From an uncultured Candidatus Saccharibacteria bacterium (GTDB lineage Bacteria; Patescibacteriota; WWE3; 9FT-COMBO-53-11): DNA of 64,000 bases. This document shows positions 4,144 through 34,362 of the stretch, piece after piece; positions within the stretch are counted from its first letter, which is position 1; the number at the start of each line of letters is the position of its first letter. The stretch lies in contig CAYGCK010000002.1 in the NCBI GenBank assembly GCA_964348395.1, forward strand, positions 12,729-76,728. Reading direction: 5' to 3'. Both the position numbers and the translations under genes were made by a program. The notes under the pieces were generated by a model that saw only the letters and a list, made by a program, of their open reading frames with translations, ran no database searches and was not told the origin of the DNA.

Positions 4144-4147
4144 ATTT

Positions 4148-5134
4148 ATGGAACTAACAGCTTACTGTATGGATTGGCATATAACTCAAAGCGGTGCTTT
4201 TAAAAAGTTACTGGTGGAACCACTGAGTTCACGCGCAGAAATCAGGTTGACCCCTTGGGACGGATATCGCGTCCCCAAACCTCCTAGTCCTAAAAGGACT
4301 CTAGTTTTTTGTATGTTGCCCCCTGATCAGACATTACTTTCGCGCTCCGATATTAACCTAGTTTGGATACCGATGTGGGATCAAGCGCAGGGTTACGACG
4401 ATTCGTGGTGGAAAAATTTACCAAAAAGTTTGCGGGTAATTGCTTTTTCTGAAAGGGTATACGAAAAAGCAATATTTGCGGGTTTACAGGTGCTTCGTTT
4501 GCAATATTTCCTCGACCCAATGCTACAAAGTTCTGCTAAGTGGCACGATGGTCATACTCTTTTTTACTGGAATAGAGTTGGTTTAGTTGGCCCGAACTTT
4601 CTAAGAAAGCTGTGTGAATCTTTGGAAATTAGGAAATTTCTTTTTAAACCCGTTTTGGATCCAAGGATTTCAAGCGACAAGTACTATACACTACCACGAA
4701 AGCTAGGATCTACGGAAGTTGTAACTATTGGTAGCACAAAAACCCATCAGGAGTTTTTGAGATTAATTGAACCTGCTAACATTGTTCTTGCTCCGCGTTT
4801 AACTGAAGGTGTTGGGATGGTTTTCCTAGAATCCATGAGTCGTGGATGTGCTGTTATAGCTAACGACGGTTCTACAATGAACGAATATATTTCGAGTGGG
4901 AGAAATGGATTGCTCTTACGCGGTGGAGAATTTTCCTTACTTCGCCGAATAGCAAAACGCTTTATACCAAAGGCATCACCATTTCTGCTGTCTGATTCTC
5001 AACCGTGGAGAAAAATGGCAGAGATCGATTTTCAGATTCTGGGAAATAAAGCTAGGGAAGACCACCGAACAGGTTACAATAAATGGCAGAAGTCTCTGGA
5101 AGAGTATGCTGATTTTGTCTTGAATTGGGGATGA
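4148..5134 (+). CDS. glycosyltransferase family 4 (GT-B)
   Basis: LAPRLTEGVGMVFLESMSRGCAVIANDGSTMNEYI carries the E-x7-E-like GT4 C-terminal signature. Confidence 0.65.
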   Translation: MELTAYCMDWHITQSGAFKKLLVEPLSSRAEIRLTPWDGYRVPKPPSPKRTLVFCMLPPDQTLLSRSDINLVWIPMWDQAQGYDDSWWKNLPKSLRVIAFSERVYEKAIFAGLQVLRLQYFLDPMLQSSAKWHDGHTLFYWNRVGLVGPNFLRKLCESLEIRKFLFKPVLDPRISSDKYYTLPRKLGSTEVVTIGSTKTHQEFLRLIEPANIVLAPRLTEGVGMVFLESMSRGCAVIANDGSTMNEYISSGRNGLLLRGGEFSLLRRIAKRFIPKASPFLLSDSQPWRKMAEIDFQILGNKAREDHRTGYNKWQKSLEEYADFVLNWG

Positions 5135-5958
5135 TGGACAGTAAGATTAAAGTTTCAGTAGTAATAGGGTCGTATAATCGGCGGAGGTTTTTGGAACCCA
5201 CTATTGAAAGCGTCCGTTCTGAAATTGAGAATATACCTCACGAAATAATCGTTGTGGATGGAGGATCGGATGATGGGGCTTTAAGTTGGTTAGTTAAGCA
5301 GAAAGACATTGTTACCATCGTGCAGCACAACAGGGGTAGATGGAAAGGGAAACCTGTAGAGCGAAAATCGTGGGGATACTTTATGAACCTCGGTTTTAAA
5401 GCTGCAAAAGGGAAATATATCTGCATGCTAAGTGACGATTGTTTAGTGGTACCTGGAGCAATCAAAAACGAAATCAAAGTTTTTGAACGCGAACTTAAGA
5501 AAAAAAGGAAAATCGGAGCGGCTGCCTTCTATTGGCGCAATTGGCCTGAGCAAAAAGATTACTGGGTGGGTTTGACTTTCGGTAACACAGTTTTTGTGAA
5601 CCACGGTTTATATCTAAAGAAAGCTTTAGAGGAAATCGGTTACGCGGATGAAGATTCTTATCAGTTCTACCACGCCGATGGTGATATTTGTATGAGGATG
5701 CAAAAGGATGGTTACGCTTGTGTAGACTCGCCTGAATCTTTTATTGAACATTACTCTCATGCCAACCTGAAGGTAAGAAGGTCAAACTTGTCCGCTCAGA
5801 AGAAAGATTGGGAGGTTTATAAGGAGAGGTGGGGTAGGTTGGGCATTCCAAAGGAGGACTGGATTATTAGGAGGTTTGATGACCCAACAAAAACAGCCGA
5901 GAAATATTGGGGAGGATTAGGTTGGTCCCCCCGACTTAGGAGAGGATTAGGGAGATGA
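5125..5958 (+). CDS. glycosyltransferase family 2
   Basis: KVSVVIGSYNRRRFLEPTIESV...EIIVVDGGSDDG is the classic GT2 N-terminus. Start overlaps the upstream stop. Confidence 0.75.
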   Translation: MGMMDSKIKVSVVIGSYNRRRFLEPTIESVRSEIENIPHEIIVVDGGSDDGALSWLVKQKDIVTIVQHNRGRWKGKPVERKSWGYFMNLGFKAAKGKYICMLSDDCLVVPGAIKNEIKVFERELKKKRKIGAAAFYWRNWPEQKDYWVGLTFGNTVFVNHGLYLKKALEEIGYADEDSYQFYHADGDICMRMQKDGYACVDSPESFIEHYSHANLKVRRSNLSAQKKDWEVYKERWGRLGIPKEDWIIRRFDDPTKTAEKYWGGLGWSPRLRRGLGR

Positions 5959-6602
5959 AACTACATTTAGGTTGTGGGGAAATCTACTTGAAGAGTTACA
6001 CCAATATCGACTACCCACCCACAAAGCACACCGTGCAAACCAGGAGCATAGCGGACGAGTATCACGACATCACAAAGCTTCGCTATCCCAAAGAAAGTAT
6101 AGAGGAGGTAAGGCTGCACCACGTTTTCGAGCACTTTAACCGATCGGTGTATTTAGCACTTCTTGCTTCTTGGTGGAGCTGGTTAAAGGTGGGGGGAATT
6201 TTGCGTATAGAGGTTCCGGATTTCGATCGTACTGCCAAGGTTGTGCTTAGCCGTTTCTCCTCGGATAAAGCTAATAGGAAGGCGTTGCGGCATATTTTTG
6301 GGGCACAAGAGGCGCCGTGGGCGGTCCATTACGAGGGTTGGTCTGTGAAGCGTCTTTCCAGTTTGCTCTCGGAATTCGGGTTTAATGTAGATAAAGTCAG
6401 CAAAAACTCCTACAAGGGAACCTACAACGTCGAGGTTTTTGCAAGTAAGAAGAAAATCTCGATGGGGGAGAAGGATTTTGAGAGTGCCGCGAAGAGATTT
6501 CTTTCAGATTATTTAGTAGACGACTCATCAACCGAAAAACGTATGCTCGACACCTGGATCAAAACCTATCGTACGCAGATCAAAAAATCTTTTGCAAGAT
6601 GA
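5955..6602 (+). CDS. class I SAM-dependent methyltransferase
   Basis: MKLHLGCGEIYLKSYTNID is a Methyltransf_23-type N-terminus. ATGA overlap with the upstream gene. Confidence 0.65.
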   Translation: MKLHLGCGEIYLKSYTNIDYPPTKHTVQTRSIADEYHDITKLRYPKESIEEVRLHHVFEHFNRSVYLALLASWWSWLKVGGILRIEVPDFDRTAKVVLSRFSSDKANRKALRHIFGAQEAPWAVHYEGWSVKRLSSLLSEFGFNVDKVSKNSYKGTYNVEVFASKKKISMGEKDFESAAKRFLSDYLVDDSSTEKRMLDTWIKTYRTQIKKSFAR

Positions 6603-7498
6603 GAAAACAACCCTTAGTCTCGGTAATTATTCCGGCCTACAACGCCGCGCAATTTCTCCCGGAAACTATTGAAAGCGCGCTCAAGCAAACTTACAAAAAT
6701 ATTGAGGTTATCGTGGTCGACGACGGTTCAACCGATAACACCGAAGAGGTCGTGAAGAAATATCCAGTCAGGTATATCAAAATCGAACATTCTGGTGGCC
6801 CCGCAACTCCCCGAAACGAGGGGGTGCATAAAGCTAAGGGAGAACTAGTTGCGTTCCTCGACTCAGATGATGTCTGGTTATCCAAAAAGTTAGAGAAGCA
6901 AGTTGATTTTTTACGGAAAAGGGATTTTGACTTTGTATCTTGTGATGCCGTAATTATCGATGAGGATGGGAAGAAACTTCGCAAAAGCTATCTTGGTGGA
7001 AGGAAGATTCCAGAAGGAGAGGTTTTCTCTTCTCTCTACCAGGACAATTTCATTATCACTTCCGCTACCCTCGCAAGAAAGACCGTTCTTATAGATGCAG
7101 GTTTATTTGATTCGAGTGTGAATCTTGTCGGGGTTGAGGATTATGATCTCTGGCTCCGGGTCGCGGCAAAGTCTAGATTCGGTTTTCATCCAGGACAACT
7201 GGTTTTATATCGTGAGCGAAGCACAAGCCTTAGCGAAGTTGCTTCGACTGCCGACTTGGGAAAACTGCTTCGTGTTCTTCAGAAAAATTCCGGGTTGGCC
7301 AAACGACTGATGGGTCCGGCTTATAAAGCTAGGCTCTTTGAGTTATTCTGGCCACTTATGGTAGCGGGTGTGAGGGATAAGAGTTTACGGCGGGGTGTTA
7401 AGTACTTCCTGCTCTGTTTACGGTACTCGCCCGTTCTTACCGCAAATAGGATAATAAAGACAGTATCTAAAAGGTTTGTGGGTGAGAATAAGCAGTGA
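6599..7498 (+). CDS. glycosyltransferase family 2
   Basis: LVSVIIPAYNAAQFLPETIESALKQTYKNIEVIVVDDGSTDNT; DSDD (DxD) motif. Confidence 0.85.
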   Translation: MRKQPLVSVIIPAYNAAQFLPETIESALKQTYKNIEVIVVDDGSTDNTEEVVKKYPVRYIKIEHSGGPATPRNEGVHKAKGELVAFLDSDDVWLSKKLEKQVDFLRKRDFDFVSCDAVIIDEDGKKLRKSYLGGRKIPEGEVFSSLYQDNFIITSATLARKTVLIDAGLFDSSVNLVGVEDYDLWLRVAAKSRFGFHPGQLVLYRERSTSLSEVASTADLGKLLRVLQKNSGLAKRLMGPAYKARLFELFWPLMVAGVRDKSLRRGVKYFLLCLRYSPVLTANRIIKTVSKRFVGENKQ

Positions 7499-8682
7499 AA
7501 ATTTTACATACGGTTGAATTTTACGATCCTTCTGTTGGCGGAATGCAGGAGGTGGTCAAACAGCTTTCGGAGCGATTGGTAGAGCTGGGACACGACGTAA
7601 CAGTAGCTACCACAAAACTTCCGAACCGCAGATCCTCGGAGATTAACGGGGTCAAGATTGTCGAATTCGATATTTCTGGCAATTTGGTAAGGGGTCTTTC
7701 CGGCGAGATTGAAAAATATAAAAAGTTCTTGGTCGAGTCAAACTTTGGCGTAGTTGTAAACTTTGCCGCCCAGCAGTGGGCGACCGATATCGCTTTGGAT
7801 ATTCTTGGCGAGATTAAAGCAAAGAAGGTCTTCGTCCCCACGGGGTTTTCCGGCTTTTACCTTCCCGAATACCAAAGCTACTTTAGGAAGATGAAGGATC
7901 GGATTAAAAAGTACGATATGGACGTTTTCCTATCCAACGACTATCGCGATATCAATTTTGCCAGAGACGTTGGGGTGGACAGGAAGAAAATTACCATCAT
8001 TCCCAACGGAGCGAACGAAAAAGAGTTTTTGAGCAAGAGTAAGAGTAAGATTGACGTCCGGGAGCGGTTGGATACTCCAGAGGAGCACTTTCTCATCCTC
8101 CACGTCGGCTCCCACACCGGGGTAAAGGGTCACAAGGAGGCGATTGAAATCTTTTCCCGTGCCAAAATCAAAAACGCCACTTTTTTAATGGTCGGCAATA
8201 TTTTTGGTGGGGGCTGCAGCGTTTACTGTCCTGCCAAAGCCCTCCTTTTTAAATTTTCGCCCAGGCGCTTGCGTGACGGTAAACGTCTTGTGGTTACCCA
8301 GCTCAAGCGGGAGGAGACGGTCGCCGCTTACCAAGCCGCTGATCTTTTTCTGTTCCCTTCCAATATTGAGTGTTCGCCGATAGTTCTTTTTGAGGCGATG
8401 GCTTCCAAGACCCCTTTCCTAACCGCCGACGTGGGCAACTCGGCCGAGATTGTTGAATGGTCGGGCGGGGCCGGAATAGTTCTGCCAACCGACAAGAATA
8501 AAGAAGGTTTTGCCAGGGTGCGGATTCCCGAGTCGATAAAAATTCTAGAGGATATTTACCGTGACGAGAAGCGGTGGGAAAAGATGGCTAAGGATGGATT
8601 TTCCGCTTGGAAGAAGCGTTTTACGTGGGAAAAGATTGCGAAGGAGTATGAGAAGCTCTATGAGAGCTTGGCTAATAGTTAA
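7495..8682 (+). CDS. glycosyltransferase family 4
   Basis: MKILHTVEFYDPSVGGMQEVV N-terminus; C-terminal FPSNIECSPIVLFEAMASKTPFLTADVG is GT4-typical. Confidence 0.8.
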   Translation: MKILHTVEFYDPSVGGMQEVVKQLSERLVELGHDVTVATTKLPNRRSSEINGVKIVEFDISGNLVRGLSGEIEKYKKFLVESNFGVVVNFAAQQWATDIALDILGEIKAKKVFVPTGFSGFYLPEYQSYFRKMKDRIKKYDMDVFLSNDYRDINFARDVGVDRKKITIIPNGANEKEFLSKSKSKIDVRERLDTPEEHFLILHVGSHTGVKGHKEAIEIFSRAKIKNATFLMVGNIFGGGCSVYCPAKALLFKFSPRRLRDGKRLVVTQLKREETVAAYQAADLFLFPSNIECSPIVLFEAMASKTPFLTADVGNSAEIVEWSGGAGIVLPTDKNKEGFARVRIPESIKILEDIYRDEKRWEKMAKDGFSAWKKRFTWEKIAKEYEKLYESLANS

Positions 8683-22627: not shown

Positions 22628-22810
22628 GATCGGTAAGATCACGTCCTATTCCCAAGACGAGATCGGGACCCCCTGGTGTGTGACGGTGGACTACCAAACC
22701 ATGGAGGAGGGGACCATAACCGTCCGCGACCGCGACACCACCAAGCAAGATAGACTAGAGATACAGGACTTACCCTCTTATTTTCTAGGGAAATTATCAC
22801 ACCTCTAGTG
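22628..22810 (+). pseudogene. displaced duplicate of the glyS 3' end (about 60 codons of the anticodon-binding domain), in frame directly after the glyS stop
   Basis: Translation [52 protein letters not shown] aligns to glyS residues about 375-425 ([51 protein letters not shown]). The nucleotides are diverged and GC-richer than the in-place 3' end. Confidence 0.7.
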
Positions 22811-22977: not shown

Positions 22978-23397
22978 ATGCTGATTGGTGAGTATCGGAT
23001 CCGTGTTGGAGCTAAGAATCGCCTATCGTTGCCTAAGAAACTTCGCGAAGACTTGGGCGAGGAGGCGGTGGTGATGCGTGGTTATGAGGGTGCGGTTCTT
23101 GTGGTGTCAAAGAAGAACTGGTCCTCACTGGTTGAGGAGGTTTTGAGCGGTCCGTTGACCGATTCCCAAGTTCGGGATACGGCTCGGTTCTTGATGGGAG
23201 GGGCACACGAAGTGGAGCTGGACTCGCAAGGGCGCTTTGTTCTCCCTCAACCTTTGGTTAGCTTTAGCGGTATAGCCCCCAAAGATGTGGTTGTCTTTGT
23301 GGGTTTGGGACGCTGGGTTGAGATTTGGTCGAGCGAGCGCTGGAGTGAGCGTTTAGCGAATTTGGGCGAGCGCGCTGCAGGAAACCTCAAATTATAA
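22978..23397 (+). CDS. mraZ: transcriptional regulator MraZ
   Basis: 139 aa. Two tandem MraZ/SpoVT-AbrB-like halves (NRLSLPKKLRE / QGRFVLPQPL). First gene of the dcw cluster. Confidence 0.8.
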   Translation: MLIGEYRIRVGAKNRLSLPKKLREDLGEEAVVMRGYEGAVLVVSKKNWSSLVEEVLSGPLTDSQVRDTARFLMGGAHEVELDSQGRFVLPQPLVSFSGIAPKDVVVFVGLGRWVEIWSSERWSERLANLGERAAGNLKL

Positions 23398-23399
23398 GT

Positions 23400-24266
23400 A
23401 TGGCAATTCACAAACCGGTACTTCCTACCGAGGTACTTAAGTTATTACAAGTTAAGGAAGGCGGTCGCTACATTGACGCGACCTTGGGGGAAGGCGGACA
23501 CGCCTTGGAGGTTGCGAATCGCGGGGGTCTGGTTCTGGGAATAGAGAAAGACCCGGAGATTCTTGAGGAAGCCAGGCAGAGGCTGGAGGGCAAGGTAAAG
23601 GTTGTTCGCGGAAACTTTGCCGATATCGATCAAATCGCCAAGACGCGCAAATTTGACGGAGCGGACGGGATACTTTTCGACTTAGGTGTGTCCTCATGGC
23701 AACTGGAGCGTTCTGGCCGAGGGTTCTCTTTCCAAAAGGACGAACCCTTAGACATGAGGGCGGACCCAAGTCTGAAAGTTACTGCAGCTGATCTTTTGAA
23801 CGGATTAACAAAACATGAACTGGAAAAACTTCTTCAAAATCTTGGTGAGGAGGAGCGAGCTAGGGAGCTTGCTCGAGCTATTGTTCGCGCCCGTACCTTA
23901 AAACCTTTTGAGACCACCGAAGACCTGGTTCTGGTGGTCGAGGAAGTCAAGGGCGGGAAAGGTAAAAAAAGAATACATCCGGCGACAAAGGTCTTTCAAG
24001 CGCTCCGGATCGCTGTGAACGATGAAATAAACGCACTGCGGTCCGCACTGCCCCGAGCGTTTGGGGTCCTCAAGACCGGCGGAAGGCTCGCAGTCGTAGC
24101 CTTCCATTCGCTTGAGGATAGGGAAGTCAAAGGATTTTTTAGTGAAGCTCAAGCGCGGGAGCTGGGTCGGGTCGTGACAAAAAAGCCCGTGAGGCCCACC
24201 CCCCAGGAGTTAAAAGAGAATCCCCGTTCGCGCTCGGCAAAGTTAAGGGTTTTAGAAAGAATTTGA
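23400..24266 (+). CDS. rsmH: 16S rRNA (cytosine1402-N4)-methyltransferase RsmH (MraW)
   Basis: HKPVLPTEVL...YIDATLGEGGHA, FDLGVSSWQLE and RIAVNDE motifs. Confidence 0.9.
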   Translation: MAIHKPVLPTEVLKLLQVKEGGRYIDATLGEGGHALEVANRGGLVLGIEKDPEILEEARQRLEGKVKVVRGNFADIDQIAKTRKFDGADGILFDLGVSSWQLERSGRGFSFQKDEPLDMRADPSLKVTAADLLNGLTKHELEKLLQNLGEEERARELARAIVRARTLKPFETTEDLVLVVEEVKGGKGKKRIHPATKVFQALRIAVNDEINALRSALPRAFGVLKTGGRLAVVAFHSLEDREVKGFFSEAQARELGRVVTKKPVRPTPQELKENPRSRSAKLRVLERI

Positions 24267-24267
24267 A

Positions 24268-24531
24268 ATGACAAGAAAAATCTTTGCCGTACTTTTCTTC
24301 TTGAGCGTGGCTGCCCAAGTCGTCGTGGCTAACTCTTTGGTTTCCAAGGGGAGGCGAATGGATGAGCTCGTGCTCGAGCGCAAGCGCCTTGAGTCACAAC
24401 TTCTAGATTTGGAAAACAAAATTGCTCAGGCCTCATCGCTTTCTGCTATAAAGGAAAAAGCAGAGAGTCTCGGGATGAAGCCCGGCAGTTTGCAGTATCT
24501 CCCACCAGCGCCGGTGGCGCTTAACCGCTGA
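24268..24531 (+). CDS. ftsL: cell division protein FtsL/DivIC-like (septum formation initiator)
   Basis: 87 aa, N-terminal TM plus coiled coil (LERKRLESQLLDLENKIAQ). Position between rsmH and ftsI. Confidence 0.65.
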   Translation: MTRKIFAVLFFLSVAAQVVVANSLVSKGRRMDELVLERKRLESQLLDLENKIAQASSLSAIKEKAESLGMKPGSLQYLPPAPVALNR

Positions 24532-26300
24532 TGCGCCTTAAGGTTGTTTTTGTATTCTTCGCGTTGGTTTTGGTCTTTATTTCGCTGCGCCTTTTTAAAA
24601 TTCAAGTTATTGATCATGAGCAGTACCTGATTTTAGCCGAGGGTCAGCGGGTACGTTCCTATGAAATCCCGGCTGAGCGGGGGCGTATCTTCTCCTCCGG
24701 AGGAATCTTGGCTACCAACGAGGAGGCGTATAGGTTATTTGCCGATTTAAACGCGGTTGAGGACCCTGAATCTTTAGCGCAGGAGTTGGTGCCTATTCTT
24801 CTTGAGGATCATCGTTTTTTTACCTATAATCCTATGCCCTCTGAGCTTGTCTCGAAAGTGGGGGATTCGAGCGACCCTAGGGAAACTTTGACCGCTCGCC
24901 TCGTCGAGCTTTTAACCAAGGAGGACAGACAGTGGGTTTCGTTGGCAAGAAAAGTTTCGCTTTCAGTCGCCGAAAAAGTAAGGGAGAAAGAGTTTGCCGG
25001 TTTAACCTTTGAACCAGATCCCCGAAGATTTTACCCTGAAGGGACGCTTGGCGCGGGTGTCTTGGGTTTTGTCGCCTCGGACGAGGAGGGAAGCGATCGC
25101 GGTTATAACGGGTTGGAGGGGTATTATGACGGGGACCTTCGTGGCAAGGCGGGGTGGTCCGCGAGTGAGTACTCCCCGACGCGCCAATCGATACTTATTG
25201 GTACCTCCTCCGCGGTCGAAGCCCAAAACGGGGCGGATCTTTATTTGACGGTCAATCGCGGGGTACAAACCATTTTGGAGGAGAAGATTAAGGAGGGAGT
25301 GGAGCGATACGGAGCCAAAAGCGGCTCTTTTGTCGCTATTGAGCCAAAGACCGGCAAGATCCTGGCTATGGGTAACTATCCAAGCTTTGATCCGGGGAAC
25401 TTTAGCCCGCTCGAGGAAGGAGGAGACTCGGATTACGGGCGGGAGTTTAGAAATCTCTCGATTGCGACGACCTATGAGCCAGGCTCTATTATGAAGCCGG
25501 TTACCCTCTCCTCGGCTTTGGACTCCGGTAAAATTGGCACCGATTGGACTTTCGTCGACAGCGGACCGCTCAAGATTGGGGAGTCGACCATAAATACCTG
25601 GGACGGAAAGCACTGGGGCAAGCAAACTTTGAGCGAACTTTTGCAGAAGTCCAACAACGTAGGAGCGGCGCAGGTGGCACTTGAGGTAGGAGCCGAAACC
25701 TTAAGGAGTTATTTCCTTAACTTTGGCTTTGGTTCGAGTTTGGGAGTGGATTTGGAGGGGGAGGAGGCCGGCCTGGTTAAGGATCTGAAGAATTGGCGTC
25801 GGGTGGATCTGGCGACCGCCGGTTTTGGCCAGGGCGTTGCGGTGACTCCTCTTCAGATGACCGCGGCTTACGCGGCGATTGCCAACGGAGGGGTTCTGAT
25901 GAAGCCTTATGTGGTTGAGAAGATTATCGATAGAGCTGGTCGCGAGATCGATTTTTCTCCTACTCCTATAAGGCGAGTAATCTCGCCCCAAACCGCCGAC
26001 GTTGTGACCGAGCTTCTGCGCTCCGCCACCTCCGGTGGCGAGTCGGTCGCGCTTAGGAACGCACGCTACGTGATAGCCGGCAAAACCGGGACCGCACAGA
26101 TTCCGGTCGGCGGTCGCTACGACCCCAACAAAAGCAATACGACGTTTGTCGGTTTTCCCTTTAAAGATAAAGAGTTTGTGATGCTCATCCGCCTTGAGGA
26201 ACCGACGACCTCTACGTTTTCGGCGACGACCGTAGTTCCTTTGTGGCTCGAGGCGTTTGAGAAGGTTGCGCCCCTTTTTGGAATCCTTCCTGATAGGTAA
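24531..26300 (+). CDS. ftsI: peptidoglycan D,D-transpeptidase FtsI (class B PBP)
   Basis: N-terminal TM and PBP dimerisation domain. Transpeptidase motifs SNNVG (SxN) and KTGTA (KTG). Confidence 0.85.
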   Translation: MRLKVVFVFFALVLVFISLRLFKIQVIDHEQYLILAEGQRVRSYEIPAERGRIFSSGGILATNEEAYRLFADLNAVEDPESLAQELVPILLEDHRFFTYNPMPSELVSKVGDSSDPRETLTARLVELLTKEDRQWVSLARKVSLSVAEKVREKEFAGLTFEPDPRRFYPEGTLGAGVLGFVASDEEGSDRGYNGLEGYYDGDLRGKAGWSASEYSPTRQSILIGTSSAVEAQNGADLYLTVNRGVQTILEEKIKEGVERYGAKSGSFVAIEPKTGKILAMGNYPSFDPGNFSPLEEGGDSDYGREFRNLSIATTYEPGSIMKPVTLSSALDSGKIGTDWTFVDSGPLKIGESTINTWDGKHWGKQTLSELLQKSNNVGAAQVALEVGAETLRSYFLNFGFGSSLGVDLEGEEAGLVKDLKNWRRVDLATAGFGQGVAVTPLQMTAAYAAIANGGVLMKPYVVEKIIDRAGREIDFSPTPIRRVISPQTADVVTELLRSATSGGESVALRNARYVIAGKTGTAQIPVGGRYDPNKSNTTFVGFPFKDKEFVMLIRLEEPTTSTFSATTVVPLWLEAFEKVAPLFGILPDR

Positions 26301-26301
26301 T

Positions 26302-26856
26302 TCAATCCTGTTCCATCTCGCGTCGTAGTTTTTGAATAGTTCGATAGAGAATCGTTCCCACATTAGTCTCCGAAAGCCCCATCACCTTGGCTATCGCTCG
26401 GTTGGTCAACCCCTCGTAGAACTTGAGGTAGATTATCTCGCGTTCCCGCTCCTCTATCTTAAAAAGTGCTCGTCCGAGCCACTCCTTTTCCTCCTCCTCT
26501 TGAAGTTCCTCAAGCTGAGCCGGGAGGTCACCTTTGAGAGGAGGTCTCTCCTCTACGCTAACCTTGCGTTTACCCCCTTCCTTTCGCAGGTGGTCGAAGA
26601 ATGTGTTTCTTGCTATTGTGAAAAGCCACGCGGAGAAAGGAATCCCCTGCCATTGAAAGCTGCCTAAACCGCCTAAAGCTTTTTCGAATGTTTCGGAGGT
26701 TAAATCTTCGGCGAGATCCGTATCTGCCAGCCTTGAGGTAAAGTAACCTCTGACTTTCGGTGCGTAGTGCTCCCACAGCACACCAAAGGGGCGGTTGGGG
26801 CCGCTTTTGATCTTTTTGGCGGCTTCGACAAGCCTTTCCTCCTCTTTTATGTCCAT
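26302..26856 (-). CDS. RNA polymerase sigma factor, ECF (sigma-24) subfamily
   Basis: Region 2 (LAEDLTSETFEKA...FSAWLFTIARN) and region 4 HTH (LTNRAIAKVMGLSETNVGTILYRTIQKLR). Confidence 0.85.
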   Translation of the reverse strand: MDIKEEERLVEAAKKIKSGPNRPFGVLWEHYAPKVRGYFTSRLADTDLAEDLTSETFEKALGGLGSFQWQGIPFSAWLFTIARNTFFDHLRKEGGKRKVSVEERPPLKGDLPAQLEELQEEEEKEWLGRALFKIEEREREIIYLKFYEGLTNRAIAKVMGLSETNVGTILYRTIQKLRREMEQD

Positions 26857-27665
26857 AACCTATCGGAGAGTTCAAGAAGTACAGGCCACAGTTTTTTAGA
26901 TGGTCCTATGAGAACGACGACTTCACCCGCCTTGACGCGCCTTGGGGCTTTAGCGATACTCTTTTCTGAAACGACGATTTTTTTTCCGGCAAAATTTTCT
27001 AGAACCTCGTCGAGCGCTTCTTTTTTTGGTGGGAGATACTCGTGGGTCGCGTCGATTATGATCCCTCCCTCCTTTGCGGGTAGGATTCTTATACGCGCCT
27101 TGGGGAGCGTGAAATTGGCGAGTGCGTCTTTTGCGGCTTTGGGAGGAATCCCAAAAAGCTTTCCTACTCTTACTGCTGCGTCGAAATAACCCCTAAGGCC
27201 CTTCGCCTCCTTAACCCTCACAGTTTTTGGGGCTTTATACTCTTTTGAGAGATACGGGGCATCCCCACAGACAACCGCGACCTGCGGTTGGGTAATCTTC
27301 CAAAAATAATCGAAAGTTTCCGCTCTCGTGTAGCCTATCTCAAGGACCAGAAAATTTTTGTGCTTGGGCAAAATTAGAAGTTGGGTGGCGCTTTTCAAGA
27401 GAATGAGCAACCACTCGGCATACGTTTTGGGGTACGAGCGAGTTCCTAGAACCGTAAGCGGTAGGACGAACTCTGCGTCTGGCGTCTCCAAATTTCGACG
27501 GGTTGGGAAGTGGTGCTTTAGGACATGATAGGTTGCTTCTCTGGCTGTCGCCGTCTGTCCATTTCCCAAAATAGCGATAACCGTAGGTTCGTGTTTTCTA
27601 ATCACCCACCTGGAGAGAAGGAGGAGTGCGAAGCGCAAAGTACGGCGCAAGAGCTTCTTTAGCAT
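26847..27665 (-). CDS. Mur ligase family-like protein (central + partial C-terminal domain) with degenerate P-loop
   Basis: PTVIAILGNGQTATAREATYHVL aligns to the Mur ligase GxxGKT(T/S) loop but with Lys->Gln and one residue deleted. NLETPDAEFVLPLTVLG, LVLEIGYTRAE (EMG-like) and IIIDATHEYLPPKKEALDEVL (DDSYNANP-like) are present. There is no N-terminal domain. Overlaps the ECF sigma start by 10 nt. Confidence 0.55.
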   Translation of the reverse strand: MLKKLLRRTLRFALLLLSRWVIRKHEPTVIAILGNGQTATAREATYHVLKHHFPTRRNLETPDAEFVLPLTVLGTRSYPKTYAEWLLILLKSATQLLILPKHKNFLVLEIGYTRAETFDYFWKITQPQVAVVCGDAPYLSKEYKAPKTVRVKEAKGLRGYFDAAVRVGKLFGIPPKAAKDALANFTLPKARIRILPAKEGGIIIDATHEYLPPKKEALDEVLENFAGKKIVVSEKSIAKAPRRVKAGEVVVLIGPSKKLWPVLLELSDRLWT

Positions 27666-27802
27666 AATTTGATTATAACCCCAACAGCTGTGACGGCGTT
27701 CTTCTTGTCCCGTTTTTCTTTTTGATGAGACACTGCCGCGCGCCGCCCTTCCTATAAGATTGTATTGCCGAGCCTCCGGTTGCTAGTATTGAAACGGAAA
27801 TT

Positions 27803-28894
27803 ATGCAGGAATTTACAGTGAAGGCCTTAGGATATCTTCTTCTATCGACGGTCGCGACGGGCGCGCTCTATCCGGTTTTTATTAATTTTTTGTACAAATT
27901 TCAGCTCAGGGAGCCTATTAACCCTGACGTTCCGAGAACCCACTTTGCAAAGCAAGGTACGCCGACCGCCGGCGGGTTCCTGCCCGTCTTGGTCTTTCTT
28001 CTCTTGAACCTTATCTTTAACCTAAGCCCCGAGGTCGCGGCTCTGGCGGCGGTTGTGGGGGCTTTGTCCGTTTTGGGAGTGTTAGAGGATCTTTTTAAGA
28101 TCTATCGTCGCTCAAGGTTGCAAAAGACTATTAGGGAGAAAATCGTTCCCATCGTTACCCTCTCCGATTTAACGTGGGACGTCTACAAGCTAGTCCTTTT
28201 CCCGTGGCGCGCTTTTAAAGAAGTTTTTAGAGCGCTCGGTTCGCAGAACGTGGGCGGAGTCGCCCCTTATCAGAAAGTGCTCTTTCAAACCGCCGCCGGC
28301 GCGGCCTTTGCCCTTTGGCATTCTATAGCGAGAGGGACGGAGGTTTGGCTCCCTCTCTTGGGGGTCGTGGATCTAGGATTTTTTTATATTCCTTTGGTTC
28401 TCTTGCTCTTTCTGTTCTTTGTCAACGCCATCTCGGTTACTGACGGTTTGGACGGTTTGGTGGGAGGGCTTTTGGCCTTGGGGTTGACCGCTTTTCTAGC
28501 GATAGCTTTGATTAACGGTCGAGGTGATTTGGCGATCGCGGCGGCTATACTGGTTGGGACGCTCTTCCCTTTTATGTACTTCAATATTTTTCCTGCGCGT
28601 ATTTTTGCCGGCAACGTCGGCGCTTTGGGTTGGGCGGGGGCTTTTATTACCTTGGGCCTTCTTCTTGATCGCTCTATCCTTCTTTTTATAGTTGGAGGGG
28701 TGTTCGTTCTTGAGGGATTGTCTGTTCTAATCCAGGTTGCGGCGGTGAAGTTGAAGAAAGGAAGAGTTTTTTTGATGGCTCCCATCCACCATCACTTTGA
28801 GATGAAGGGGTGGGCGGAGGCCAAAGTCACGATGCGCTTCTGGTTGGCAGGAGCTTTCCTCGCCTTTTTGGGGCTTTTTGTAGCCCTCCTTTAA
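27803..28894 (+). CDS. mraY: phospho-N-acetylmuramoyl-pentapeptide transferase MraY
   Basis: DGLDGLVGG, NVGALG and PIHHHFEMKGW motifs; 10 TM helices. Confidence 0.9.
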   Translation: MQEFTVKALGYLLLSTVATGALYPVFINFLYKFQLREPINPDVPRTHFAKQGTPTAGGFLPVLVFLLLNLIFNLSPEVAALAAVVGALSVLGVLEDLFKIYRRSRLQKTIREKIVPIVTLSDLTWDVYKLVLFPWRAFKEVFRALGSQNVGGVAPYQKVLFQTAAGAAFALWHSIARGTEVWLPLLGVVDLGFFYIPLVLLLFLFFVNAISVTDGLDGLVGGLLALGLTAFLAIALINGRGDLAIAAAILVGTLFPFMYFNIFPARIFAGNVGALGWAGAFITLGLLLDRSILLFIVGGVFVLEGLSVLIQVAAVKLKKGRVFLMAPIHHHFEMKGWAEAKVTMRFWLAGAFLAFLGLFVALL

Positions 28895-28896
28895 TT

Positions 28897-30063
28897 ATGA
28901 TTGCAAAGAGAACGAAGGTTAAACTCTCCTCGCACCATCGACCAGACGTCCCTTTTATAATTGGGGCTTTGGCACTCTTGGCGTTTGGGGTTTTGATGGT
29001 TTATGATTCCTCGGCCGTTTCCGCGGTTGGACTTTTAGGGGGGCAGTACCACTACCTTATACTTCAACTTATATGGGTGGGACTGGGTGTGGCGGGGGCT
29101 TTATTTTTCTACTTCTTGGATTATCACAAGCTCAAAAAAGTCGCCTTTCCTCTTTTTTTGGTGACCGTCGTTCTTCTTGTTCTGGTTCTTCTTCCGACCT
29201 CGATCTCCTACGTTATAAGGGGTTCCCGCAGTTGGCTGGTCTTGCCGCTTCGACTCCCTCTTATTGAAGGGTTTTCTATCCAACCCTCTGAGCTTTCCAA
29301 ACTCGCTCTTATTTTGTATCTGGCGGCTCTTTTTACCAATCAAGGCAGGGGTAGATCTAAAGAAAAGGAAGGCGGCCCAAAGTTTCTTTTTTTTGCCGTG
29401 CCCACTGCGTTAATAGCTGCCCTTATCCTTCTTGAGCCCGATCTTGGAACGGCTGCGATTATAGTCGCTTTGGGATTTGCCGCCTTTTTCTTTGCGGAAG
29501 GAGCGCTTTGGAAGATACTGCTGACTCTACCCGCGGTTTTGGCGGCGGGTGTGGGATTTATCCTTTTGAATCCCAGTCGGCTGGGGAGAATAAGGGCGTT
29601 TCTTGATCCGTCCTCGGATCCTCTAGGCGTGGCCTACCACGTTAACCAAATTCTGATCGCTCTGGGGTCTGGAGGTCTTTTGGGTTTGGGAATCGGGGAG
29701 TCCCGACAGAAGTACGGTTATATACCGGACGTTTCGACAGACGCGATTTTTGCGGTCGTTGGAGAAGAGTTTGGGTTTTTAGGTACTTTTTTCGTGGTCG
29801 CTCTTTTAGGTTTTATTCTTTATCGGGGATTTCTTATCGCCAAACACGCTCCTGACGGGTTTGGACGGGTTCTTGCGGCCAGTATCTCCTCCTGGGTTGG
29901 GCTTCAAGCGTTAGTCAATTTAGGAGCGGTGACCAATATCCTACCCCTCACAGGTGTTCCTCTACCCCTAATATCTTACGGCGGTTCGTCGTTGGTGGTT
30001 TTGCTTTCATCTTTTGGAATACTTTTGAACATAAGTCGGCAAACAGTAAGAAGTAGAAAGTGA
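28897..30063 (+). CDS. ftsW: SEDS-family peptidoglycan glycosyltransferase FtsW
   Basis: ATG at 28897 immediately after the mraY stop. Polytopic; the long ORF from 28810 overlaps mraY and is not used. Confidence 0.8.
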   Translation: MIAKRTKVKLSSHHRPDVPFIIGALALLAFGVLMVYDSSAVSAVGLLGGQYHYLILQLIWVGLGVAGALFFYFLDYHKLKKVAFPLFLVTVVLLVLVLLPTSISYVIRGSRSWLVLPLRLPLIEGFSIQPSELSKLALILYLAALFTNQGRGRSKEKEGGPKFLFFAVPTALIAALILLEPDLGTAAIIVALGFAAFFFAEGALWKILLTLPAVLAAGVGFILLNPSRLGRIRAFLDPSSDPLGVAYHVNQILIALGSGGLLGLGIGESRQKYGYIPDVSTDAIFAVVGEEFGFLGTFFVVALLGFILYRGFLIAKHAPDGFGRVLAASISSWVGLQALVNLGAVTNILPLTGVPLPLISYGGSSLVVLLSSFGILLNISRQTVRSRK

Positions 30064-31184
30064 CTCAAGAGAAAAAACTACCAATTCGTGCGGTCATAAC
30101 GGGAGGTCATCAAGACCCGGCTATCGCCGTTTTGCAGGAGCTGGAGAAGGAGGGTCGATTCGAGTTTCATTGGGTGGGGCAAAAAAATGAGGGGGGACAG
30201 GACGGTCCGTCTTTGGAATTTAGAACCGTAAGAAAGCTTGGCATTCCCTTTTATGACTTAAAAACCGGCAAGCTCTATAAGAGCTCAATTCTGGAGTGGG
30301 TGAAGATACCGTTTGGGTTTTTCCACGCTTTGTATCTGCTTTTTAGGATTAGGCCGCGAGTCGTCATATCCTTCGGCGGCTATATTGCGGCGCCCGTTGT
30401 TTTGGCGGCCTATACCTTAGGGATACCGTCGGTTACTCACGAGCAGACCGTAGTTTTGGGGTGGGCCAACCGCTTCATTTCGCTTTTCGCCAAAAAAATC
30501 TTCGTCTCTTGGGAAGAGTCATTAAAACACTTTCCTAAAGGTAAGACCGTCTTGACCGGTAATCCTGTTCGCCGGGCGGTGTTTGAGAAAAAAGTCAGAA
30601 GATTTGAGTTTAAAAACGACCTCCCAACGGTATACGTAACCGGAGGGAAGCGAGGAGCACACGTTATAAACGAGACGATAAGGGGAGCTTTGTCCACTTT
30701 TCTGGAGCGCTTCAACATCATTCATCAAACCGGCGCGTCTGAGGTTTTTCAGGATTATCAAAAACTACAACTTCTTAAAACCCAGCTCCCCAAAAAATTA
30801 CGGTCGCACTATATTGTTCAGGAGTTTTTTGGCTTGGACGAGATCGGCGCTGTTTTTGCCGCTTGTGACCTCATCGTCGGTCGCGCCGGTGCCAATACCG
30901 TAACCGAGCTAGCCGCTTTAGCAAAACCAGCCGTTCTTATCCCAATTCCTTGGGCTTCTCACAATGAACAGTATTTAAACGCCAAGCTTTTGTCCGCGCG
31001 GGGCGCAGTTTTAATACTCCCCGAGAGCGAGCTCTCCACGACCAATTTTTTGGAGGCGGTTTCTACGATAGTTTCCGATCTAGGTCGTTTCAGAAAGAGT
31101 GCTCGTAGCGCTAAAGGTCTTGTTAAACCCGACGCTGCAAGTCTTATAGCTCGCGGGATTAGGGAGCTGGTAGACTTAAGCTGA
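30060..31184 (+). CDS. murG: undecaprenyldiphospho-muramoylpentapeptide beta-N-acetylglucosaminyltransferase MurG
   Basis: VITGGHQDPAIAV..., GGYIAAPVVLAA and VTGGKRGAHVINE motifs (GT28). Confidence 0.85.
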   Translation: MTQEKKLPIRAVITGGHQDPAIAVLQELEKEGRFEFHWVGQKNEGGQDGPSLEFRTVRKLGIPFYDLKTGKLYKSSILEWVKIPFGFFHALYLLFRIRPRVVISFGGYIAAPVVLAAYTLGIPSVTHEQTVVLGWANRFISLFAKKIFVSWEESLKHFPKGKTVLTGNPVRRAVFEKKVRRFEFKNDLPTVYVTGGKRGAHVINETIRGALSTFLERFNIIHQTGASEVFQDYQKLQLLKTQLPKKLRSHYIVQEFFGLDEIGAVFAACDLIVGRAGANTVTELAALAKPAVLIPIPWASHNEQYLNAKLLSARGAVLILPESELSTTNFLEAVSTIVSDLGRFRKSARSAKGLVKPDAASLIARGIRELVDLS

Positions 31185-31966
31185 TGCGGCTTTTCCCATC
31201 AAGAAGAAGGCTGAAAACGCTTAGACGTTCTCCGAGGTTTTTCATTTCTGCCCCCACAGGTCGCCAAATTGTTGTGCCGTTTCGCCCCGTCTCGACCGTT
31301 TTGATTGTTGTTCTGGCTCTTCTTAGTGTCTTTCTCGCTCTTCGCTCGGATATCTTTCAGGTTAAGGCGCTTGAGTTTGAGCTTGAGGAGATTGCCGATG
31401 AAACCCTTGTGAGACAGCGGGTTATGGAAGAAGTCATGGGCCGAAGTATCTTTTTCTTAAACACCTCAAAAGTCGAGAACTCCATTAAGGGAGATTTCCC
31501 AACCATCAAAGAGGTTATTTTGGAGAAGAAACTTCCCGATGGACTCTACATTGCGGTAAACGTTCGGGTTCCGCTGGCCGTCGTTGAGGATAAGGATGGG
31601 GATAAATTCTTGGTGGATCAGGAGGGTTTTCTTTTTGAAGAAGGTGCCGGAGAGAATCTTCCGGTTATCAAGTTAGGGGGCGATTTTGACGGCGCGGTTG
31701 GTCTTTCTGTAAGTGATAAAGGAGTCCGCTCTTATCTGGAGACGCTCGAGCTTGCTGCGCAGAAAGGTTTTGTGGTTCGTGCTATTTATCTCAACTCTAC
31801 AACGATCGAACTTCGTCTTGAAGGGACGGTGGTTTGGCTTAGCGCTGAGGGAAAAATTTCCTCACAACTTGAGCTTCTGACGAACCTTCTCCAGCGCTAC
31901 AAACTAGGCGGAACGACCCCAAAATCGGTAGACCTTCGCTTCGCACGTCCTGTGGTTAGACTTTAG
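31184..31966 (+). CDS. ftsQ: cell division protein FtsQ/DivIB (POTRA)
   Basis: N-terminal TM then POTRA-like domain. Position between murG and ftsA. Confidence 0.7.
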   Translation: MRLFPSRRRLKTLRRSPRFFISAPTGRQIVVPFRPVSTVLIVVLALLSVFLALRSDIFQVKALEFELEEIADETLVRQRVMEEVMGRSIFFLNTSKVENSIKGDFPTIKEVILEKKLPDGLYIAVNVRVPLAVVEDKDGDKFLVDQEGFLFEEGAGENLPVIKLGGDFDGAVGLSVSDKGVRSYLETLELAAQKGFVVRAIYLNSTTIELRLEGTVVWLSAEGKISSQLELLTNLLQRYKLGGTTPKSVDLRFARPVVRL

Positions 31967-31998
31967 CCCGTACTCCTGCTGCTTATGATATTATTCGC

Positions 31999-33264
31999 TT
32001 GAGAAGTAAATCACGCGCCATGCCCAAAGAAAACATTGTTACAGGGATAGACGTCGGCTCTACCAAAATCTCAACCGTTATCTCCTCCTTATCACCCGAG
32101 AATAAAATCTCTGTAGTAGGGGTCTCAACTGTTCCTTCAAGAGGAATAAAAAAAGGCGTCGTTGTCGATATCGACGAGGCGGTCGAGGCTATAGCCGAGA
32201 GTTTGGAGCAAGCGGAACGTATGGCCGGGTATTCGGTTTCCTCGGCTTTTGTTGCGGTCGACGGGAAGCACATCTCCTCCCTCAACTCCCACGGCGTCGT
32301 CGCGGTTGGCGGTGAGGGGGCAGAGATAGCGGAAACAGATGTAGAGCGGGTGACGGAGGCGGCGCGTGCCGTATCGCTTCCTTCCTCTCGCGAGATCATC
32401 CATGTTTTGCCGCGGGGTTTCACCGTTGATTCCCAAGATGGGATAAAAGATCCGGTCGGAATGAGCGGAGTTCGCATGGAGGTAGAGACAAATATTATCT
32501 CCGGATCAACGACCGTGATGAGAAACTTGGTGAAGTGTATTCAGCACGTGGGGGTTGACGTCGAGGACTTGGTTTTTTGCGGTTTGGCCTCCTCCGAAGC
32601 GGTTCTTTCGGAGACGGAGAAAGAGCTTGGTTGTGCACTGGTTGATATAGGTGGGGAGACCACCCAAATTTTAATTTTTACCAACGGAAGTCCGGTTTAC
32701 GCCGCGGTTGTACCCTATGGAGGACAAAGTATCACCAATGATCTGGCGGTTGGACTTAGGGTATCGCTTGAGGATGCGGAGAGGATAAAACAGAAGCTTT
32801 CGAGCGAATCTTTGGCTAAGCAGGAGGAGAAGAAAGACGAAGTTGATATTTCAGAGTTGGGACTAGAGACTAAATCCATACCTCTTTCATTTGTTGAAAA
32901 CATAATTGAAGCTCGACTTTCCGAGGTCGTAAATATGATAGGGCTTGAGGTTAAAAACTCCGGACAGCAAGGTAACCTTCCCGCAGGTTTGATCATAACC
33001 GGTGGGGCGGTTGAAACCTTAAAACTCAAAGACACGGTTAAAAAACACCTTCGCCTCCCCTTGAGGATAGGGCGTCCCAAAGGGGTTTCCGGATTGATCG
33101 AAGAGGTATCAACCCCCGCCCACTCAACTTCCATAGGTCTTGTTCTTTACGGTTCATACGCAGGTCCTAAGGAGGGGCGCGTCGGATTACCGTCGGTGGA
33201 CCTGCGGCGGGTTTCCCAGGCATTTGGGAGGGTGATAGAATGGGGAAAGAGTTTCCTGCCCTAG
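31999..33264 (+). CDS. ftsA: cell division protein FtsA
   Basis: IVTGIDVGSTKISTVIS actin-fold phosphate-1 motif; VDIGGETT phosphate-2. Confidence 0.9.
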   Translation: MRSKSRAMPKENIVTGIDVGSTKISTVISSLSPENKISVVGVSTVPSRGIKKGVVVDIDEAVEAIAESLEQAERMAGYSVSSAFVAVDGKHISSLNSHGVVAVGGEGAEIAETDVERVTEAARAVSLPSSREIIHVLPRGFTVDSQDGIKDPVGMSGVRMEVETNIISGSTTVMRNLVKCIQHVGVDVEDLVFCGLASSEAVLSETEKELGCALVDIGGETTQILIFTNGSPVYAAVVPYGGQSITNDLAVGLRVSLEDAERIKQKLSSESLAKQEEKKDEVDISELGLETKSIPLSFVENIIEARLSEVVNMIGLEVKNSGQQGNLPAGLIITGGAVETLKLKDTVKKHLRLPLRIGRPKGVSGLIEEVSTPAHSTSIGLVLYGSYAGPKEGRVGLPSVDLRRVSQAFGRVIEWGKSFLP

Positions 33265-33306
33265 TGTATAAAATCCAAGCGTCGTATACTGTCCAAAAGT
33301 ATTCTC

Positions 33307-34362
33307 ATGCGCGTTAAACCACAAATAGAAAAAGCTGCGAACATAAAGGTCGTTGGTATGGGGGGTGCCGGCGGTAACGCCATAAACTCTATGATTAGAA
33401 ACCAGAAGATTCAGGGTGTTGAGTTTGTAGCGATTAATACGGACTCTCAGGCGCTCGCCTCCTCCGATGCCCCAGCTAAGATCCAAATTGGGGAGAAGAT
33501 CACCCGAGGCTTGGGTTCGGGGGGAAACCCGGAGGTTGGTCGCAAGGCCGCAGAGGAGTCCACCGAGATGTTAAAGGATAGAATGGATGGCGCGGATATG
33601 GTTTTTATAACGGCCGGTATGGGCGGAGGAACCGGGACGGGAGGGGGCCCTATTGTTGCGGAACTAGCGAAATCGCTTGGTGCTTTGACCGTCGGTGTCG
33701 TTACCAAACCTTTTGGATTTGAGGGCTCGCGTCGTATGGAAAACGCGGTTAAGGGTATCGAAGAATTGAGGGAAAAGGTAGACGCGCTGATTGTTATTCC
33801 CAACCAAAAACTTTTGGAAATTGTCGAGCGTAACATGTCTATTTTAGACGCATTTCGCCTGGCCGATTCGATTTTGGGACGGGCGGTTCAGGGTATTTCG
33901 GATCTTATTGTTATCCCGGGTTTGGTGAACGTTGATTTTGCTGATGTGCGCTCCATTATGACCAACGCAGGAAGTGCTCTTATGGGGATAGGGGAGGGGA
34001 GTGGAGAGGACAAGGCGGCCACAGCAGCGCGAGCGGCTGTTACTTCGCCTCTACTTGAAGTTTCGGTTGACGGTGCGATGGGAATTCTTCTGAATATTGT
34101 CGGAGGGGGCGACCTTGCTATGCATGAAGTCGATGAGGCCGCCCGACTTATTTCGGAGTCGGCCGACCCCAATGCGGATATCATTTTCGGGGCTTCGATT
34201 GACGAGGAGATGAAGGATGAGATCAAAATCACGGTGATAGCAACGGGGTTTACTCTCGGATCGTCTGAGGGTGGGAGCCCGAAGAAAGAAGAAAGAAAGG
34301 AGGAGTCGGAGGAATCCGACGAGTTCGAGGCTCCGGCTTTCTTGCGCCGAGGTAAACGTTAG
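33307..34362 (+). CDS. ftsZ: cell division GTPase FtsZ
   Basis: GGGTGTGGGPIVAELAK tubulin signature; NTDSQAL; acidic C-terminal tail. Confidence 0.95.
   Translation: MRVKPQIEKAANIKVVGMGGAGGNAINSMIRNQKIQGVEFVAINTDSQALASSDAPAKIQIGEKITRGLGSGGNPEVGRKAAEESTEMLKDRMDGADMVFITAGMGGGTGTGGGPIVAELAKSLGALTVGVVTKPFGFEGSRRMENAVKGIEELREKVDALIVIPNQKLLEIVERNMSILDAFRLADSILGRAVQGISDLIVIPGLVNVDFADVRSIMTNAGSALMGIGEGSGEDKAATAARAAVTSPLLEVSVDGAMGILLNIVGGGDLAMHEVDEAARLISESADPNADIIFGASIDEEMKDEIKITVIATGFTLGSSEGGSPKKEERKEESEESDEFEAPAFLRRGKR

Follow-up and report, generated by a model that had tools for sequence, protein, structure and literature searches.

What are two genes for a reduced relative of a Mur ligase and for an ECF sigma factor doing on the opposite strand in the middle of a dcw cluster? 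The question is raised by a 64-kb stretch of DNA (the window) in which the 5′ part of the cluster (mraZ, rsmH, ftsL, ftsI; 22978-26300) and its 3′ part (mraY-ftsW-murG-ftsQ-ftsA-ftsZ; 27803-34362) both lie on the + strand, and in which the antisense pair sits between ftsI and mraY (Table 1). A preliminary description had placed a two-gene antisense unit here, with a 10-nt overlap between the Mur-ligase-like gene and the sigma gene and with murE, murF, murD, murC and ddl missing. Both genes and their overlap were confirmed from the sequence, and the missing genes were borne out as well: no Mur-ligase, Ddl or MurB domain occurs among the window's ORFs of at least 150 aa. There are likewise no mur genes in the 9.5 kb of contig beyond the window, and the MurF homologues that we retrieved include none from the window genome itself; one candidate for that role, P0220, was discarded since it belongs to another assembly. 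The window corresponds to contig WVZC01000267.1 of GCA_011772635.1, which carries the NCBI label 'Candidatus Saccharibacteria bacterium', but its closest relatives are WWE3/Patescibacteria MAGs. The mraY of the window is 60-75% identical to that of relatives.

Table 1. Features of the antisense gene pair and its surroundings (positions in the window)
Feature	Position	Strand	Remarks
Mini-MurF gene	26847..27665	-	272 aa; MurF-derived, predicted pseudoenzyme
ECF (group 4) sigma factor gene	26302..26856	-	184 aa; sigma-2 and sigma-4 domains only
Overlap of mini-MurF stop and sigma start, 10 nt, ATGGACATAA	26847..26856	-	from sequence
Degenerate P-loop remnant GNGQTAT, mini-MurF residues 34-40	27546..27566	-	from translation
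TATAAT -10 box	27672..27677	-	from sequence; ends 6 nt ahead of the mini-MurF ATG
ECF-type promoter-like motif AAACGG-N15-GTCAC (AAC-N16-CGTC)	27690..27715	-	faces the pair; candidate
Divergent intergenic region mini-MurF/mraY, 137 bp	27666..27802	.	from sequence
ftsI	24531..26300	+	Pfam PBP_dimer and Transpeptidase; convergent with the sigma gene
mraY	27803..28894	+	Pfam Glycos_transf_4; divergent from the pair; first gene of the downstream dcw half

The gene pair and its conservation

The first gene of the pair encodes a protein that we call mini-MurF. A basic helix forms its N terminus, the central domain is reduced, and of the C-terminal part a remnant of about 60 aa is left. The product of the second gene is recognized as a sigma factor both by Pfam (Sigma70_r2, 5.7e-17, 61.7 bits; Sigma70_r4_2, 3.4e-11, 43.1 bits) and by TIGR02937, where it scores 105.1 bits over a cutoff of 42.9, and the r3 and r1.1 regions are absent. 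Its best subfamily match is the BldN-like TIGR02952, under that family's cutoff.

The order mini-MurF then sigma is found in all of the approximately 21 loci examined, from 79% down to about 30% identity: wherever DNA downstream of mini-MurF is available (the window, L001-L005, L007-L013, L016-L019, L021-L023, L101 and L102), the sigma gene is the next one. The preliminary description had allowed that the pair might be missing from this position in all relatives, and a check of synteny shows that it is not. The linkage can also be followed from the sigma side, where a metagenome scan returned 80 ECF loci. Mini-MurF lies directly upstream in seven of the seven loci with at least 38% identity and enough upstream DNA, a borderline locus at 38% (L024) being without it, and in none of the roughly 70 loci whose ECFs have 37% identity or less is there a mini-MurF upstream. 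Mini-MurF is obligatorily paired with one ECF clade.

The junction of the two genes is tight. A 10-nt overlap occurs in five loci (the window, L001, L003, L007 and L008), implying translational coupling of the mini-MurF stop and the sigma start, and in seven others (L002, L004, L005, L011, L012, L101 and L102) they overlap by at most 1 nt or stand up to 24 nt apart. The surroundings are conserved mainly on the sigma side: in 16 of the 17 loci with enough flanking DNA the pair and ftsI or murA(-ftsI) are transcribed convergently, the exception being L002, where it persists outside a dcw cluster. On the divergent side the neighbour may be mraY, ddl, an aminotransferase, murA, ftsW or Cu-oxidase_4, and this variation rules out adjacency to mraY as a conserved feature. 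Mini-MurF and the ECF sigma gene behind it form a conserved operon of two genes, inserted antisense in the dcw cluster of ultra-small bacteria of the WWE3 type. In the window the stop codons of ftsI and sigma are 1 nt apart; this leaves no room for a terminator, no terminator-like site was found in the gap between the two genes, and the convergent transcripts therefore probably overlap.

Descent and losses of mini-MurF

Standard domain searches largely fail to see what mini-MurF is. Pfam gives no match at E ≤ 1, Mur_ligase_M (PF08245) and Mur_ligase_C (PF02875) included, and the NCBIfam murF model TIGR01143 matches at E = 2.4e-9 with 36.7 bits, far under its cutoff of 288.6, whereas the true MurF proteins of relatives score 289-298 bits and pass it. 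The relation to Mur ligases claimed in the preliminary description was recovered by more sensitive comparisons: a profile of the mini-MurF family (34 sequences) matches T. maritima MurF (3zl8) at E = 2.4e-7 over four collinear segments, and hhalign against the true MurF of a relative gives a probability of 95.7%. In an exhaustive HMM search the family, which comprises 66 representative clusters of proteins of about 250-300 aa, grades directly into the canonical CPR MurF enzymes of about 425 aa, whose first 130 or so residues score 100-120 bits. The AF2 model folds confidently (pLDDT 89.4) as a reduced Mur-ligase core, and Foldseek recovers the Mur-ligase central-domain fold with matches that include 8r6s chain Q. 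Mini-MurF has both its origin and its fold in common with the central domain of Mur ligases, and it is descended from the CPR-type MurF of its own lineage.

To map what was lost and what was kept, family members were aligned with canonical CPR MurF and residues were tabulated over 100 members. CPR-type MurF starts directly at the linker helix, and mini-MurF is collinear with it through that helix, beta1 with its loop, RxN..NE-x-G-x-PLT, LxLEmG, GR... and IDDTYN. It differs in its length (272 aa compared with 400-450 aa), in being encoded antisense with a sigma gene, and in the elements that it lacks. The column that holds the Lys of the canonical GxxGK[ST] is Thr in the family by ungapped alignment (position 38, T in 78 of 100 members), and the "P-loop" is hypervariable, with forms such as GEGKT, GNGQT, GDGPT, GENSS and DDTYS. 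The His motif HxEFF is gone and CGxAPYLS stands in its place. The central domain has lost about 110 aa, and the C-domain core (GDMLELG...H...KGS, the amino-acid substrate site) is deleted as well. What is left of the C-terminal domain is its first strand, its last strand and the terminal helix. Among the canonical elements the Mg-binding Glu of LxLEmG is kept, as E109 in 83% of the family and Q or D otherwise.

The dead P-loop of the preliminary description therefore stands in substance and extends to the whole family, but a point change was too little to describe the loss, in view of the two large deletions. Its further claims, that there is no N-terminal domain and that the protein is non-catalytic, are supported as well. 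Without the ATP-binding Lys, the His motif, the 110 aa and the C-domain core, mini-MurF cannot be a canonical ATP-dependent ligase, and from its sequence we take it to be a pseudoenzyme.

Position 37, next to the lost Lys column, is K in 36, Q in 18, E in 14 and P in 10 of the 100 members, with S, N and A also found. K at this position is essentially the mark of a WWE3 subclade with GEGKT, and the Q of the window (GNGQT), where the consensus has K, is no more than a local feature of a loss that is family-wide.

What remains is highly conserved. Residues R56, E60, E65, F66, P69, L70, Y78, P79, W85, D205 and P212 are conserved in 96-100% of members and N58 in 94%, while K24, H25, R42, E43, R57, E109, R191 and Y210 fall in the range of 83-100%. 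Overall, length and about 30 residues are conserved over the 66 representative clusters, a pattern that points to strong constraint and purifying selection. By homology the conserved surface would sit largely around the former MurF cleft, and mini-MurF probably still binds something.

Conservation of this kind also bears on the idea in the preliminary description that mini-MurF is a murF relic in place. A decaying pseudogene, or an artefact of assembly or annotation, might be suspected because the pair occupies the usual murE/murF spot in a window without mur ligases. In relatives, however, genuine murE, murB, ddl and murF genes lie next to this antisense pair. Specifically, murA sits between the sigma gene and ftsI in some of them, in L004 an aminotransferase is fused in frame to a full MurE beside the pair, and a true MurF that passes the TIGR01143 cutoff is found directly before mraY; in one WWE3 genome mini-MurF and MurF are three locus tags apart (COT70_00130 and COT70_00145). 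Since it coexists with intact murF, mini-MurF is an additional, old paralogue that was anciently fixed. In a sub-arrangement seen in the window, L008/L018, L010 and L017, the mur genes have departed from this place. The pair moreover lies on the strand opposite to the cluster and recurs in independent NCBI, JGI, ENA and Logan assemblies, and a decaying gene would hardly keep its length, its conserved residues and a confidently predicted fold. The relic or artefact reading is effectively refuted by these conservation data, and we give it next to no credence.

Control region and candidate anti-sigma factors

The sister ECF clades provide a picture of how such sigma factors are usually organized. 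In 43 of the 44 more distant loci with enough flanking DNA the sigma gene is followed by a coupled, co-directional ORF, and for 36 of these 43 ORFs a TM helix is predicted, in most cases some 90 residues behind a conserved cytoplasmic N-domain. This is the textbook layout of a sigma factor followed by its membrane anti-sigma. The mini-MurF clade is without a classical downstream membrane anti-sigma gene, and what lies downstream is the convergent ftsI or murA. Mini-MurF itself has no TM helix and no anti-sigma domain, it has the Mur-ligase alpha/beta fold, and it is encoded upstream of the sigma factor.

Two other ORFs were considered as anti-sigma candidates. A 220-aa ORF at 25701-26363 on the - strand, which starts inside the 3′ end of sigma, was rejected as a shadow of ftsI: it is wholly antisense to that gene, it contains 14% Arg, and its apparent homologues track ftsI. 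The other is a small ORF of 62-69 aa with the pattern DHxCxxC...H/CxxC/H, which belongs to no Pfam family and follows sigma in L003, L004, L007, L008/L018, L009 and L016 at a loose spacing of 48-425 nt. It could be a real anti-sigma in the relatives that carry one. No such ORF occurs in the window, L001, L002, L010, L012, L017, L021-L023, L101 and L102.

Upstream of mini-MurF two promoter-like elements can be distinguished. In 13 of 18 loci, distant ones included, a TA[TCA]AAT hexamer has its first base 12-16 nt ahead of the start codon, a position from which a leaderless or near-leaderless mRNA would be expected; a generic -35/-10 scanner missed this box because of its poor -35. Further upstream, 9-10 of the 18 loci have the motif AAACGG-N15-(G/A)T(C/T)AC, for which 0.77 matches are expected per shuffled window on both strands. 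Its holders are the window, L003, L004, L005, L007, L009, L011 and L012, with a near-match in L006, and they represent four neighbour contexts (mraY, ddl, aminotransferase or murA on the divergent side). The motif can also be written AAC-N16-(C/T)(G/A)TC. In about half of the loci it is missing or degenerate. The preliminary description had proposed to look for an ECF motif upstream of 27665, and the instance that we find there is oriented toward the pair and is a candidate autoregulatory promoter. A regulon search with the motif gave no convincing second site in the window or in the loci. A riboswitch or other RNA element between mini-MurF and mraY was also considered and set aside, the intergenic region having no match to any Rfam family.

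Possible roles of mini-MurF

The reading that we favour, though we hold it somewhat short of an even chance, is that mini-MurF is a dedicated cytoplasmic regulator or sensor of the ECF sigma factor with which it is paired. Most likely as an anti-sigma or sensor, mini-MurF would hold sigma, and the binding of a ligand in the remnant of the MurF cleft would release sigma or alter the grip on it. Such a ligand would be related to wall precursors, with UDP-MurNAc-peptide, D-Ala-D-Ala or a nucleotide as candidates, and the residues kept for the cleft would be the RRNxE and E-F-x-x-P-L-T motifs together with Glu109, Arg191 and Asp205. Basal expression of the pair could come from the housekeeping TATAAT promoter, giving the near-leaderless mRNA, and induced expression from the upstream ECF-type promoter by positive autoregulation. 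Since the dcw cluster is split by the pair, which has a control region in common with the downstream mur/fts half, this arrangement could couple precursor supply to the expression of wall and division genes. The idea of a partner or sensor for a sigma factor with a putative role in envelope stress was already raised in the preliminary description; its partner or sensor part, which we too hold as an inference, is strengthened by the strict co-occurrence of the two genes and by the missing classical downstream anti-sigma. What speaks against a regulatory role is that a regulator encoded upstream is atypical for ECF systems and that the fold is unlike known anti-sigma domains; some ECF sigma factors, moreover, require no anti-sigma at all. 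The same side is taken by the ECF-like motif, which is missing or degenerate in about half of the loci and has no second copy in the window that would define a regulon, and by the small CxxC ORF behind sigma in several relatives. A more specific proposal, possible but on the doubtful side, is that a Mur-ligase-fold pseudoenzyme has replaced the membrane anti-sigma, and that this metabolite-sensing protein would read the precursor pool from the cytoplasm and tune transcription of the split dcw cluster of genome-reduced CPR bacteria.

Mini-MurF might instead be an effector that the shared operon co-induces with sigma and that modulates precursor synthesis without catalysis, for instance by docking on MraY, MurE, MurF or MurG or by sequestering UDP-MurNAc-peptide. 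We consider this unlikely, as it leaves the near-perfect linkage to a single sigma clade and the start-stop coupling unexplained, the neighbouring mur genes vary, and in L002 the pair persists without a surrounding dcw cluster. Sigma could also be controlled in some other way, by the small Zn-ribbon protein, by an unlinked anti-sigma or by transcription alone, in which case the linkage to mini-MurF would be no more than operon history. The conserved 62-69-aa ORF that follows sigma in some relatives fits such a scheme, and ECF groups without anti-sigmas are generally known to exist (PMC7826278). That ORF is loosely spaced, though, and many loci lack it while keeping mini-MurF, and inertia by itself hardly explains a linkage that is maintained down to about 30% identity, so that we regard this alternative as improbable. 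Finally, the near-invariant polar residues around the former active site (R56, R57, N58, E60, E65, D205 and, in 83%, E109) and the confident predicted fold would suit an enzyme with altered chemistry, such as a transferase or hydrolase that works on a muropeptide precursor without ATP or with a different dependence on nucleotides. The loss of all canonical ATP/Mg elements save one Glu, the hypervariable "P-loop", and the deletion of both the 110 aa of central domain and the D-Ala-D-Ala-binding C-domain core make this more improbable still.

The proposal that mini-MurF regulates its sigma factor can be set beside several known systems. Like class I anti-sigma pairs such as SigW-RsiW, SigE-RseA and those of the sister ECF clades, the locus couples a small ECF sigma factor to one dedicated gene and has a candidate autoregulatory promoter of the AAC...CGTC type; unlike the partners in those pairs, mini-MurF is encoded upstream, is cytoplasmic with no TM helix, has a Mur-ligase fold in place of an anti-sigma domain and is a putative sigma binder. 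RsbW-SigB and SpoIIAB-SigF are cases of enzyme-fold anti-sigmas whose gene directly precedes the sigma gene and overlaps it. RsbW and SpoIIAB have the GHKL kinase fold, keep ATP binding and act on group 3 sigmas through partner-switching with an anti-anti-sigma. Mini-MurF resembles them as a soluble protein with the fold of a nucleotide-binding enzyme, encoded upstream of and overlapping its sigma gene, but its locus shows no GHKL fold, no retention of ATP binding and no partner-switching component.

A precedent for moving the Mur-ligase fold from peptidoglycan synthesis to the transcription machinery is PAP11, the MurE-like subunit of the plastid RNA polymerase (PMC11561172), and from that literature the Foldseek match 8r6s chain Q would be PAP11. 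It differs from mini-MurF in having the full length of a MurE-type protein and additional C-terminal folds, which bind the beta-prime clamp, and in being eukaryotic, nuclear-encoded, of independent origin and not a partner of a sigma factor. MurT, of MurT/GatD, is a different case in that its ATP site is kept, it is catalytic, and its partner is a glutaminase and not a sigma factor. In the literature that we searched we found nothing relevant on an ECF sigma factor with a Mur-ligase-type partner, on CPR ECFs or on MurF paralogues, and the main text of the ECF re-classification paper presents no ECF group with such a partner. The module thus appears to be undescribed, as the preliminary description had supposed.

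The module is an ECF sigma factor with an unconventional partner and a mechanism that we infer. If that mechanism is true, a dead cell-wall enzyme serving as partner would define a new class of ECF regulator, one that does its sensing inside the cytoplasm and not at the envelope, and bacteria would have a counterpart of the MurE-like subunit in the plastid polymerase. No family of signalling sigmas in bacteria is larger than that of the ECF sigma factors, and the control of each of its groups is a central question. The mini-MurF family is also a clean case of the passage from enzyme to pseudoenzyme, with a defined parent in CPR MurF, defined deletions and about 66 clusters for analysis of co-evolution, and the module lends itself to direct tests on purified proteins and in heterologous reporters, for which the organism need not be cultured. 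Regulation in CPR/Patescibacteria is almost unknown and their regulators are very few. In these organisms the pair permanently breaks an otherwise co-directional dcw cluster into two units, and the module may be among their few dedicated controls of wall synthesis and division.

Gene borders around the pair and the region upstream

At the downstream border of the pair, the stop codons of ftsI and of the ECF sigma gene lie 1 nt apart in convergent orientation (window 26300-26302). There is no terminator-like structure at these stops, and the transcripts of the ftsI unit and the sigma unit probably overlap as antisense RNAs. At the other border, another GAAACGG heptamer is found at 27790-27796 (+), 6 nt before the mraY ATG and on the strand opposite to that of the ECF-like motif upstream of mini-MurF, the 272-aa MurF-derived pseudoenzyme. 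Because this heptamer does not recur at other mraY-adjacent loci, it may be there by chance.

Immediately upstream of recO-hisS-dcw lies a large surface-polysaccharide cluster of about 20 kb (431-20515, +), whose co-directional genes include those for glycosyltransferases, methyltransferases, epimerases, sugar-transferases and DUF4012 proteins. Just past the hisS stop (22616), a fragment at 22629-22799 (+) is 61% identical to HisS residues 375-430, as if part of the HisS anticodon-binding domain had been duplicated.

Small CxxC ORF and unusual pair loci

Several relatives share a small conserved ORF (62-69 aa) that runs in the same direction as sigma and lies 48-425 nt downstream of it, ahead of murA. 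Its motif, V-T-K/Q-x-D-H-x-C-x-x-C ... R/H-Y-H/C-x-x-C/H, is zinc-ribbon-like, and no Pfam family was found for it. The ORF is missing in the window and in most loci that carry the pair; it could be an accessory regulator of sigma.

Loci carrying the small CxxC ORF downstream of sigma
Locus	Position (nt)	Remark
L003	3996-4205	
L004	7446-7637	
L007	7582-7770	
L008	7412-7615	L018 is the same
L009	about 7957-8142	
L016	about 1396-1581	

In the very divergent relative L101, the slot between sigma and ftsI that is usually occupied by murA is filled by a 404-aa protein (6374-7588, -) with no Pfam match, and the pair is divergent from ftsW, mraY not adjoining. The only locus with the pair outside a dcw cluster is L002 (8854-11456). 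Here the pair is still divergent from a Glycos_transf_4 gene (338 aa, MraY/WecA-like), the product of which is only 27% identical to the window MraY, and a CofD-family gene comes next after the pair.

A candidate aminotransferase-MurE fusion

In the relative L004, one 860-aa ORF (3268-5850, -) encodes a PLP aminotransferase in residues 1-383 and, in the same frame, a full-length MurE in residues 394-857 (TIGR01085, 447 bits). In L001 the aminotransferase has its own gene (380 aa). The L004 ORF may be a genuine fusion that ties amino-acid supply to stem-peptide synthesis.

Two kinds of MurF and a possible origin of mini-MurF

The profile search with the mini-MurF family also matched a second short family of 250-265 aa (P0108, P0114 and about 20 similar matches), which aligns only to the first ~135 profile positions, has P-loops that read, for example, GQYGT or GSYKT, and is unrelated to mini-MurF in its C-terminal half. 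Its sole context seen is L015, a 1.4-kb contig without downstream sequence, where the neighbour is a SpoU-type methyltransferase.

The MurF proteins in these lineages are of two kinds. The CPR type (P0109, P0111, P0113, P0122) has ~425 aa, with the linker helix as its start, and contains a 'YP...W' insertion that is also present in mini-MurF, whereas the WWE3 relatives' own MurF (L004:1015-2241, L001:5791-6864) has 357-408 aa, lacks the insertion and finds its next-best matches in Bacteroidota and Chloroflexi. The existence of these two kinds hints that mini-MurF derives from the ancestral CPR murF, and that a replacement may now serve as the working murF.
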